From the sequence record OQ973471.1: a DNA stretch of 64,000 nucleotides. One strand, given 5' to 3'. This document shows positions 2,300-3,493 of this stretch, piece by piece. Under the pieces are notes generated by a model. That model did no database searches. It had not been told where the DNA came from and saw only the letters and a list, made by a program, of their open reading frames with translations. The first letter of the stretch is position 1. The number at the start of each line of letters is the position of its first letter. Made by a program: the position numbers and the translations under genes. Origin of the DNA: Escherichia phage AV101.

Positions 2300-3493
2300 A
2301 TGAACAAAACCATCTTCGATACCCTTTCCCTCGACCGCAACCTGGTCCATTGGGAAGATTATCTCTACAAGCACACCCCGTGCGAACTTGTCGTCAACCC
2401 CGAAACCAACCAGCAGGTCTGGTTCAAGCGTGAAGATTATTTTGCGCCGCTGTCCAACTATGCCAACGCCAAGCAGGGCATCAATGGCAGCAAACTCCGC
2501 CAGGCCATCTGGTTGATGGTTGAGCACCTCAAGGCCGGAGGCTCCCCTGATATCATTCATGGTACTGTTGTTGGTAGCCCGCAGTCCCCTATGGCGACAG
2601 CAGTCTCTAGACACTTCGGTGGTAAGACAACCACTGTACTCGGAGCGACCAAACCCACCACCTGTATGAACCACGACATGGTGGCAATGTCAGCCTGGTT
2701 TGGTAGTGAGTTCAACTTCGTTGGCTCGGGTTACAACAGCACCATCCAGCCGCGCTGTAAGAAACTCATTGAACAATTAAATCCAAAGGCGTACTACCTG
2801 GAGTATGGTATCACCCTCGACCATACAGCGCATTCCCCTGAGCGCATCGCTGGCTTCCATATGCTGGGTGGCGAGCAGGTTGCCAACATTCCTGATCACA
2901 TTACTGACCTGATCATCCCAGCCGGATCGTGCAACTCTTGCACAAGCATCCTAACCGGGCTGGCAATGCATCCGAAGCCTAATCTGAAGCGTGTGTATCT
3001 GATCGGCATCGGTCCTAACCGCCTTGACTTTATCGAGAGCCGTCTGCGCATCATCGGCAAACATGCCAATCTGCCGCACATTGTCGACTTTACCCGTCGC
3101 TATCACGACAACCCAGACTATGTACACGGCAAGAAGGAGCTTCAGCATGCCTCCAAGAGCGTTTCTCTGGCTGGCCTCCTAAGTGGTATCAGGCAGAAGG
3201 AAGAGCCAGAGGTCGTGCTTCCTCGCTTTGAGGTACACCATTGGGATCTTCACACCACTAATTGGGTTCGTTACAATGACCTGATGGAATATCAGTGGGG
3301 TGATATTGAGTTGCATCCTCGCTATGAAGGCAAGGTCATGACCTGGATCCAGCAGAACAAGCCAGAGCTGCTCAATGAGAACACTCTGTTCTGGATTGTG
3401 GGTAGCAAGCCGTACATTGATCCAATGAAGGCTGCATGTCCTGAACTGGCTATCCCCGAAGCAGTACCTGTAAACGAATTCACCCCTTCCTGA
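2300..3493 (+). CDS. PLP-dependent enzyme, fold type II (ACC deaminase / D-cysteine desulfhydrase-like)
   Basis: KREDYFAPLSNYANAKQGINGSKLRQ resembles the ACC-deaminase lysine motif (KRED...GGNKTRKLEY); later GTVVGSPQSP and IIPAGSCNS segments fit the same fold. AGGAG RBS. Compared from memory. Confidence 0.6.
   Translation: MNKTIFDTLSLDRNLVHWEDYLYKHTPCELVVNPETNQQVWFKREDYFAPLSNYANAKQGINGSKLRQAIWLMVEHLKAGGSPDIIHGTVVGSPQSPMATAVSRHFGGKTTTVLGATKPTTCMNHDMVAMSAWFGSEFNFVGSGYNSTIQPRCKKLIEQLNPKAYYLEYGITLDHTAHSPERIAGFHMLGGEQVANIPDHITDLIIPAGSCNSCTSILTGLAMHPKPNLKRVYLIGIGPNRLDFIESRLRIIGKHANLPHIVDFTRRYHDNPDYVHGKKELQHASKSVSLAGLLSGIRQKEEPEVVLPRFEVHHWDLHTTNWVRYNDLMEYQWGDIELHPRYEGKVMTWIQQNKPELLNENTLFWIVGSKPYIDPMKAACPELAIPEAVPVNEFTPS

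Follow-up and report, generated by a model that had tools for sequence, protein, structure and literature searches.

Escherichia phage AV101 (OQ973471.1) carries a gene which very probably specifies the last enzyme of the thymidine-hypermodification pathway of the Ackermannviridae, serving the synthesis of 5-(2-aminoethoxy)methyl-dU (5-NeOmdU). The chemistry of this assignment is taken from gp226 of Salmonella phage ViI, a PLP-dependent decarboxylase of O-serinyl-thymidine (O-SerT) in DNA, to which the AV101 protein is identical at 361 of 394 positions (92%) without gaps. By analogy, we infer that the DNA of AV101 itself carries 5-NeOmdU. The gene, the pathway and the chemistry are already known, having been published in 2018 and 2021 for this 92%-identical ortholog, and the result is therefore small as a discovery; its practical value lies in annotation.

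Gene model and genomic position

In the window, that is, the whole 64,000-nt stretch of AV101 DNA which was analysed, exactly one long ORF occupies 2300..3493 (plus strand). It opens with ATG, codes for 397 amino acids, and is preceded at a distance of 7 nt by a Shine-Dalgarno sequence (AGGAG, 2288..2292, plus strand). The reading frame is blocked on the 5' side by a stop codon (TAA, 2273-2275). In ViI the annotated start of gp226 lies 27 codons further upstream, hence its K92 is K65 in the AV101 numbering used here. A longer N-terminus following the ViI annotation was considered for the AV101 protein and rejected, since the in-frame stop rules out the 27-codon extension in this phage. The full-length match to PHROG 3650 (residues 1-397; E 1.4e-238) and the presence of the gene, at 80% nucleotide identity or more, in 246 phage records show that the ORF has not arisen by chance. 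Both motifs quoted in the original prediction, KRED and GINGSKLRQ, are found in the 397-amino acid translation.

ARAGORN places genes for tRNA-Met, Asn, Tyr and Ser at 230-1203. The PLP gene had been described as lying next to this tRNA cluster, which is loosely right, but approximately 1.1 kb and one ORF of 218 amino acids (1574-2230) intervene. The gene order is that of ViI: the tRNA region, a hypothetical gene, the PLP gene and an ART-like gene, followed by the DNA polymerase, kinase 2 and transferase genes. AV101 differs in that a GIY-YIG homing endonuclease gene has been inserted shortly upstream of the gene for kinase 2, a position at which ViI lacks it. The features discussed below are listed in Table 1.

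Table 1. Location of the predicted decarboxylase gene of AV101, its conserved elements and its pathway partners within the window
Feature	Position	Strand	Basis or remark
PLP-dependent O-serinyl-thymidine (DNA) decarboxylase gene (predicted), gp226 ortholog	2300..3493	+	Identity to ViI gp226; PHROG 3650; PMC8989533
K43-R44-E45-D46 motif	2426..2437	+	K43, R44 and D46 invariant in the family
G60-INGSKLRQ-68	2477..2503	+	K65 codon at 2492-2494
S93-P94-Q95, invariant	2576..2584	+	Aligns with Ser78-Asn79-Gln80 of ACC deaminase and Ser-Asn-His of DcyD
P207-AGSCNS-213, glycine/serine-rich loop	2918..2938	+	Aligned to the loop region which binds the PLP phosphate in ACC deaminase and DcyD
Family-specific variable insertion, residues ~262-312	3083..3235	+	Gap in hhalign to DcyD; length-variable in the family alignment
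H339-PRYEGK-345	3314..3334	+	Y342 and E343 align with Tyr294 and Glu295 of ACC deaminase
5-hmdU DNA kinase 2, ViI gp243 ortholog	11265..12182	+	PF18747 HMUD2, E 4.8e-157; 85% identity
Amino acid:DNA transferase (serine:DNA transferase), ViI gp247 ortholog	12740..13975	+	PF18724 ADDT, E 4.5e-60; 90% identity
Thymidylate-synthase-like dUMP hydroxymethylase, ViI orf00066 (thyA, Vi01_060c) ortholog	52703..53749	-	PF00303, E 1.5e-15; 75% identity
[quoted passage not shown]

Orthology with gp226 of phage ViI

In the ViI record (NC_015296) gp226, which is also orf00226, Vi01_182 and YP_004327553, occupies 140538-141812. Besides being similar over its full length to the AV101 protein, it has the predicted PLP lysine in common with it, and the two genes share their genomic surroundings and their pathway partners. 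The ViI protein has been purified and is a PLP-dependent decarboxylase which converts O-SerT in DNA to 5-NeOmdU (Lee et al. PNAS 2018, PMC5889632; Lee et al. NAR 2021/22, PMC8989533). The preparation has a yellow colour, with absorption at 410-425 nm, and from O-SerT DNA it yields a nucleoside of 301 u which is identical to native 5-NeOmdU (PMC8989533). When the O-SerT was labelled with 13C3/15N-serine exactly one carbon was lost with gp226 (PMC8989533), and reconstitution with five lysates from which gp226 was omitted led to the build-up of a nucleoside whose mass exceeds that of the native base by 44 u (PMC8989533, PMC5889632). In ViI, then, once the kinase and the transferase have acted, gp226 decarboxylates the serine portion of O-SerT within the DNA polymer in a PLP-dependent reaction (PMC8989533). 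The original prediction had proposed a decarboxylation step in thymidine hypermodification, in one pathway with the thymidylate-synthase-like and kinase genes, and this is the published function of gp226.

Genes for the remainder of the pathway, i.e. the kinases, the amino acid:DNA transferase and the dUMP hydroxymethylase, co-occur with the PLP gene in the 64-kb window. The ViI transferase gp247 makes O-SerT, the substrate of the decarboxylase (PMC8989533, Table 1), and the role of the thymidylate-synthase-like gene as a hydroxymethylase supplying 5-hmdU follows PMC5889632, PMC8989533 and the phiHS2 preprint (bioRxiv 10.64898/2026.05.19.726188). In ViI the thyA-like gene adjoins gp67. An ortholog of gp160, a clade-1 paralog of the transferase, was not found in the 64-kb window. 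The ViI gene is situated at 87-88 kb, some 50 kb off, and by synteny its AV101 counterpart is expected outside the window; gp160 is not the transferase paralog shown to be needed in ViI. A Pfam scan of the genes around the PLP gene and the kinase/transferase cluster showed no additional modification enzyme of the radical SAM, FAD or acetyltransferase kind, and the sole inserted ORF in these flanks was the homing endonuclease.

Distribution of the family

The best match to the gene is in Escherichia phage YX22 (Aglimvirinae), with 95.4% nucleotide and 98.7% protein identity. All of the close DNA matches belong to Ackermannviridae (ViI-like) phages, and these infect Salmonella, Klebsiella, Escherichia, Dickeya and Shigella. 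At the protein level tblastn found homologs in 347 of 50,697 phage records. Such a gene had been called unusual in a phage; within the Ackermannviridae it is in fact conserved. A review of this family describes the modification genes as conserved across its members. 5-NeOmdU has been shown in phages ViI, CBA120 and phiHS2, in the last of these, an E. coli phage of the Ackermannviridae having the same gene set, by HPLC-MS (bioRxiv 10.64898/2026.05.19.726188).

A large protein search returned 430 relatives, from which 41, reaching down to approximately 40% identity, were used for the family alignment and profile. Two of the distant homologs have informative neighbours. One (43% identity) is the immediate upstream neighbour of an ADDT gene, and its contig of 183 kb has genes for DNA replication, recombination and ligase; the other (39%) is the immediate downstream neighbour of a radical-SAM gene, which is an M6-type arrangement, on a contig which carries terminase and portal genes. 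A restriction of the homologs to host metabolic contexts, which would have spoken against the original prediction, was looked for, and the homologs were found instead in phages and phage-like contigs beside hypermodification genes.

Fold and nearest cellular families

As a single sequence the AV101 protein matches Pfam PALP (PF00291) weakly, with an E value of 4.9e-7 and 29.8 bits (gathering score 35), and over residues 26-249 only; several of its close homologs carry a precomputed PF00291 match. A phmmer search of the single protein against PDB sequences gave no match even at E 10, and an NCBIfam scan gave no family at E up to 1, the curated models for ACC deaminase and D-cysteine desulfhydrase (DCyD) included. 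The 41-sequence profile, on the other hand, produced seven significant matches in the PDB (E 1.5e-6 to 3.7e-3), every one of them an ACC deaminase or a D-cysteine desulfhydrase. Among these is 1j0a, the Pyrococcus ACC-deaminase homologue according to its PDB title; a Phyre2 match of gp226 to this structure is given in the NAR paper, in which the fold type is not otherwise discussed (PMC8989533). Aligned with hhalign, the family profile and E. coli DcyD (MG1655) match over 279 columns, nearly the whole of both proteins, with a probability of 86% and an E value of 5.2e-6.

The AlphaFold2 model built from the alignment has a mean pLDDT of 88.4 and a pTM of 0.88, values below 70 being confined to the insertion and the extreme C-terminus. 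When this model was compared with the PDB using Foldseek, ranks 1-32 were taken exclusively by DCyD and ACC deaminase chains (E 3e-10 to 4e-7; TM 0.5-0.68; 12-16% identity), after which came SbnA, CBS, OASS and TrpB; the best 50 of 310 matches (E up to 1e-3) were all fold-type II. The model, the Foldseek matches and the alignments together reveal the two-domain fold resembling the beta subunit of tryptophan synthase, a lysine on the N-terminal side and a Gly/Ser-rich loop later in the sequence. The HMM check against PALP that accompanied the original prediction therefore leaves the single sequence below the gathering score, but the profile and fold searches confirm that this is a PLP enzyme. 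As a structural description, a fold-type II PLP enzyme resembling ACC deaminase and D-cysteine desulfhydrase holds good on the evidence of profile, hhalign, Foldseek and the conserved lysine.

The likeness to ACC deaminase is one of fold only, and we do not file the AV101 protein as a functional member of the ACC deaminase/DCyD group, because the demonstrated activity of its ortholog is decarboxylation of a DNA adduct. These enzymes (1rqx, 1f2d, 1j0a, 4d8t and E. coli DcyD) are the nearest solved folds, align over nearly their full length and keep the equivalent active-site residues. They differ from the phage family in reaction: gp226 removes the alpha-carboxylate of an amino acid bound to DNA, whereas ACC deaminase and DCyD act on free metabolites. 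The former opens a cyclopropane ring and the latter carries out a beta-elimination. To our knowledge decarboxylation has not otherwise been assigned to a fold-type II PLP enzyme. The list of fold-type II members in a review is without any decarboxylase (PMC6411801), and a literature search for a known one returned general reviews only. Since no close structural precedent for decarboxylation on this fold is known to us, the active-site mechanism proposed below is drawn from general PLP chemistry.

Predicted catalytic lysine and conserved residues

The KRED motif is common to ACC deaminase, DcyD and gp52 of Pseudomonas phage M6, as seen in the HMM and hhalign alignments. K65 is invariant in the 41 aligned homologs down to approximately 40% identity, as are N62, G63 and R67, so that the loss of the PLP lysine upon proper alignment, a concern raised with the original prediction, did not occur. 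K65 aligns with K51 of ACC deaminase (1rqx and 1f2d), with the lysine region GGNK of E. coli DcyD, with K92 of ViI gp226 as annotated, and with K36 of M6 gp52; the latter two have been named as the predicted aldimine lysines of their proteins (PMC8989533). K65 is accordingly predicted, from these alignments, to be the Schiff-base (internal aldimine) lysine of the AV101 enzyme.

Further active-site residues are conserved as well. Lys51, Ser78 and Tyr294, with Glu295, are those which we take, on the basis of the literature on the Pseudomonas and yeast enzymes, to have active-site roles in ACC deaminase. Their counterparts in AV101 (K65, S93, Y342 and E343) are all present and invariant. In the PDB profile search the equivalence of Y342-E343 with Tyr294-Glu295 comes from sub-threshold second segments; the hhalign alignment to DcyD repeats the residue equivalences of that search, DcyD having Tyr-Thr opposite Y342-E343 over the full-length alignment. 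In the 41 sequences H339, P340 and K345 of the same motif are also invariant. Within the loop P207-S213, residues G209 and N212 are invariant and S210 and S213 are at least 90% conserved (41-sequence alignment). From what is known of fold-type II enzymes (PMC6411801), this loop would bind the phosphate of PLP.

Two elements set the phage family apart from its structural neighbours. Throughout the family proline stands in place of asparagine at the Asn79 position, and an insertion of approximately 50 residues is present, which is mostly low-confidence or disordered in the model (pLDDT 47-61 for residues 271-310). The invariant Pro94 and the flexible insertion are candidates only for orienting the carboxylate or engaging DNA. 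Tentatively, and as a reading which we hold to be less likely than not, the gp226 family might constitute a structurally uncharacterised class of PLP alpha-decarboxylases on the ACC-deaminase/DCyD scaffold, in which Pro94 and the insertion (residues 262-312) redirect the chemistry to CO2 loss and allow duplex DNA to dock.

Comparison with gp52 of phage M6

A second characterised hypermodification decarboxylase, outside the family, is gp52 of Pseudomonas phage M6, the C-alpha-glycinyl-thymidine decarboxylase of the 5-NedU pathway, which performs the same class of reaction on a DNA-tethered amino acid; its substrate is another one, and prior action of a radical-SAM isomerase is needed (PMC8989533). 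On the unannotated M6 record we located its gene between the ADDT and radical-SAM genes (Pfam PALP, E 6.3e-10), in a plus-strand cluster of ADDT, PALP, radical-SAM, HMUDK, Nmad5 and TS genes. Neither tblastn nor the gp226-family HMM, run against the M6 genome segment, gave a significant match to gp52. With hhalign the gp226 family and M6 gp52 align over 180 columns with 22% identity (E 1.2e-3), the M6 segments VKREDLCAPL..SKIRG being superposed upon FKREDYFAPL..GSKLRQ. Both belong to the PALP superfamily and have the motif KRED-x2-APL...SK[LI]R in common, and their predicted lysines align, that of M6 being K36 when numbered from an internal Met. The M6 protein, at approximately 280 amino acids, is without the insertion of the gp226 family. 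Judged from these comparisons, gp52 and gp226 are very distantly related; they share superfamily, motif and reaction type but belong to different families.

Proposed pathway and mechanism

Transferred from ViI to AV101, the pathway would begin with the thymidylate-synthase-like enzyme making 5-hydroxymethyl-dUMP, which would be incorporated in DNA as 5-hmdU. The P-loop 5-hmdU DNA kinases would then phosphorylate the hydroxymethyl group on the polymer, and the amino acid:DNA transferase would exchange the phosphate for the side-chain oxygen of free serine, giving O-SerT with its alpha-amine free. In the decarboxylase PLP would be held by K65 as the internal aldimine until transaldimination by the alpha-amine of O-SerT generates the external aldimine. 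The alpha-carboxylate would thereupon leave as CO2, and protonation and release would yield the aminoethoxy side chain and hence 5-NeOmdU in DNA. The aldimine route is general PLP chemistry, as presented in PMC8989533.

Alternative functions

The structural neighbours invite the view that the protein is a genuine ACC deaminase or D-cysteine desulfhydrase with a free small molecule as its substrate, and its gene an auxiliary metabolic gene for manipulating the sulfur or ethylene-precursor metabolism of the host. Such enzymes are the nearest solved structures and the sole significant PDB profile matches, the equivalents of K51, S78, Y294 and E295 are conserved, and names of this type are found on some of the JGI homolog records. 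We nevertheless hold it to be extremely improbable. The identity is 12-16% only, the curated NCBIfam models do not match at E up to 1, and the invariant proline beside the Ser78 position and the insertion are features of the phage family. The homologs, moreover, sit in phage contigs beside hypermodification genes, and the 92%-identical ViI enzyme decarboxylates DNA-bound serine (PMC8989533). Hardly more credible is a threonine/serine ammonia-lyase (dehydratase), the function entered in many GenBank and UniRef records, where orthologs appear as "threonine ammonia lyase", "threonine dehydratase" or "threonine deaminase". Those enzymes do have the PALP fold, but the names are automatic transfers from the common superfamily: no threonine dehydratase occurs in the best 50 of 310 fold matches or in the PDB profile matches, no NCBIfam model matches, and the experimental activity of the ortholog is, again, decarboxylation (PMC8989533).

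A closer alternative retains the family and the DNA-bound substrate and supposes another amino-acid adduct, or another PLP reaction, in the Aglimvirinae-like lineage, with a modification other than 5-NeOmdU as the outcome. Precedent exists in M6 gp52, a PLP decarboxylase with C-alpha-glycinyl-T as its substrate, and in the combinatorial diversity of hypermodification clusters (PMC8989533). Set against this, the decarboxylase and the transferase which chooses the amino acid are 92% and 90% identical to the ViI enzymes, the Pfam-scanned flanking genes include no extra modification enzyme, and the review describes the gene set as conserved family-wide. We regard a different modification as very unlikely, and retain O-SerT decarboxylation leading to 5-NeOmdU as the preferred function.

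Annotation and significance

In most GenBank records the gene is labelled "hypothetical protein", "threonine ammonia lyase" or even "DNA repair protein", and PHROG 3650 bears the label "unknown function". The gene should instead be labelled as that of the PLP-dependent O-serinyl-thymidine decarboxylase in 5-NeOmdU biosynthesis. For structural biology the family is of interest in that an ACC-deaminase-like fold-type II site decarboxylates a base adduct within DNA, and the phmmer search of PDB sequences with the AV101 protein gave no match. DNA modified with 5-NeOmdU is resistant to many restriction endonucleases. The gene predicts that AV101 DNA is partly substituted with 5-NeOmdU, which would affect its restriction digestion, sequencing and cloning; this predicted substitution may also affect the interplay of the phage with host defence systems.

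Start codon of the decarboxylase

The ViI reference record (NC_015296) gives gp226, the ortholog of the PLP-dependent O-serinyl-thymidine decarboxylase of AV101, 27 additional N-terminal codons (25539-25619 of L002, the locus containing this extension). In the window the frame matching the extension is stopped by a TAA (region 2273-2302), while the ATG at 2300 is preceded by a good AGGAG. A family alignment revealed that upstream of this methionine the N-termini of the homologs are not conserved. Judged from these sequences, the annotated start of ViI gp226 is probably 27 residues too long, so that the published K92 numbering of its predicted Schiff-base lysine would probably be too high by 27 as well.

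The Pseudomonas phage M6 record (DQ163916) in the phage collection is unannotated. A Pfam scan of 38.4-45.0 kb (L007, a segment of this record, 13406-20023) recovered the entire published cluster in order: ADDT, PALP (gp52), radical SAM, HMUDK helical domain, Nmad5 and TS-like. The gp52 ORF possesses an in-frame extension of 39 codons upstream of the methionine that yields the published K36 numbering. A tblastn search also gave a weak partial match (30% identity, residues 65-248, E 5e-10) to Mycobacterium phage Vincenzo (NC_028934, 1508-2047). This 72-kb phage is unrelated, and the matching gene, which is of the PALP type, is annotated as "carboxylate deaminase".

Genes and signals surrounding the decarboxylase

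For the region corresponding to the tRNA cluster (see table), the annotation of Escherichia phage YX22, a 95%-identical relative, shows only tRNA-Met and tRNA-Ser. Either there is a true difference in content between these close relatives or YX22 is under-annotated. The first gene 3' of the decarboxylase specifies a protein resembling ADP-ribosyltransferases, which also matches DUF3990 slightly under the cut-off of that model; ViI has a gene of equal size, Vi01_183, at the equivalent position. Further downstream a hairpin separates two convergent genes and, by its sequence, looks like a bidirectional intrinsic terminator ending the four-gene plus-strand block which includes the decarboxylase.

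Features identified in the window
Feature	Position	Strand	Details
tRNA cluster	230-1203	+	Met(CAT), Asn(GTT), Tyr(GTA), Ser(GCT)
ART-PolyVal ADP-ribosyltransferase-like domain, stand-alone, 154 aa	3534-3998	+	PF18760, E 2.7e-10
GC-rich hairpin, AAAGGGGCGTTAAGCCCCTTT	4495-4517		T-runs on both strands; between genes 4035-4493 (+) and 4532-5176 (-)
NT5C-type 5'-deoxynucleotidase domain ORF, 259 aa	9492-10271	+	PF06941, E 1.2e-8
GIY-YIG (SegD-like) homing endonuclease ORF, 228 aa	10586-11272	+	PF01541, E 5.5e-8
Gene at position of ViI dnk	within 51044-52706	-	P-mevalo_kinase match only, weak, sub-threshold
dUTPase_2-family protein	within 51044-52706	-	PF08761
"Phage ACT-like domain" protein	within 51044-52706	-	PF24021, E 2.3e-78

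Homing endonuclease and nucleotide metabolism

The homing endonuclease ORF is inserted between the DUF7254 gene and that for 5-hmdU DNA kinase 2, its 3' end sharing 8 nt with the start of the latter. ViI lacks a gene at this position. Using megablast, this ORF was found in only 17 phage records compared with 246 for the decarboxylase gene. Such scattered occurrence is characteristic of homing endonucleases that are mobile.

Three further genes lie transcriptionally downstream of the TS-like gene and 5-HMUDK, and together they constitute a compact nucleotide-metabolism block. Directly after the DNA polymerase gene is the NT5C-type ORF, the predicted product of which may contribute to remodelling the nucleotide pool so that 5-hmdU is incorporated.
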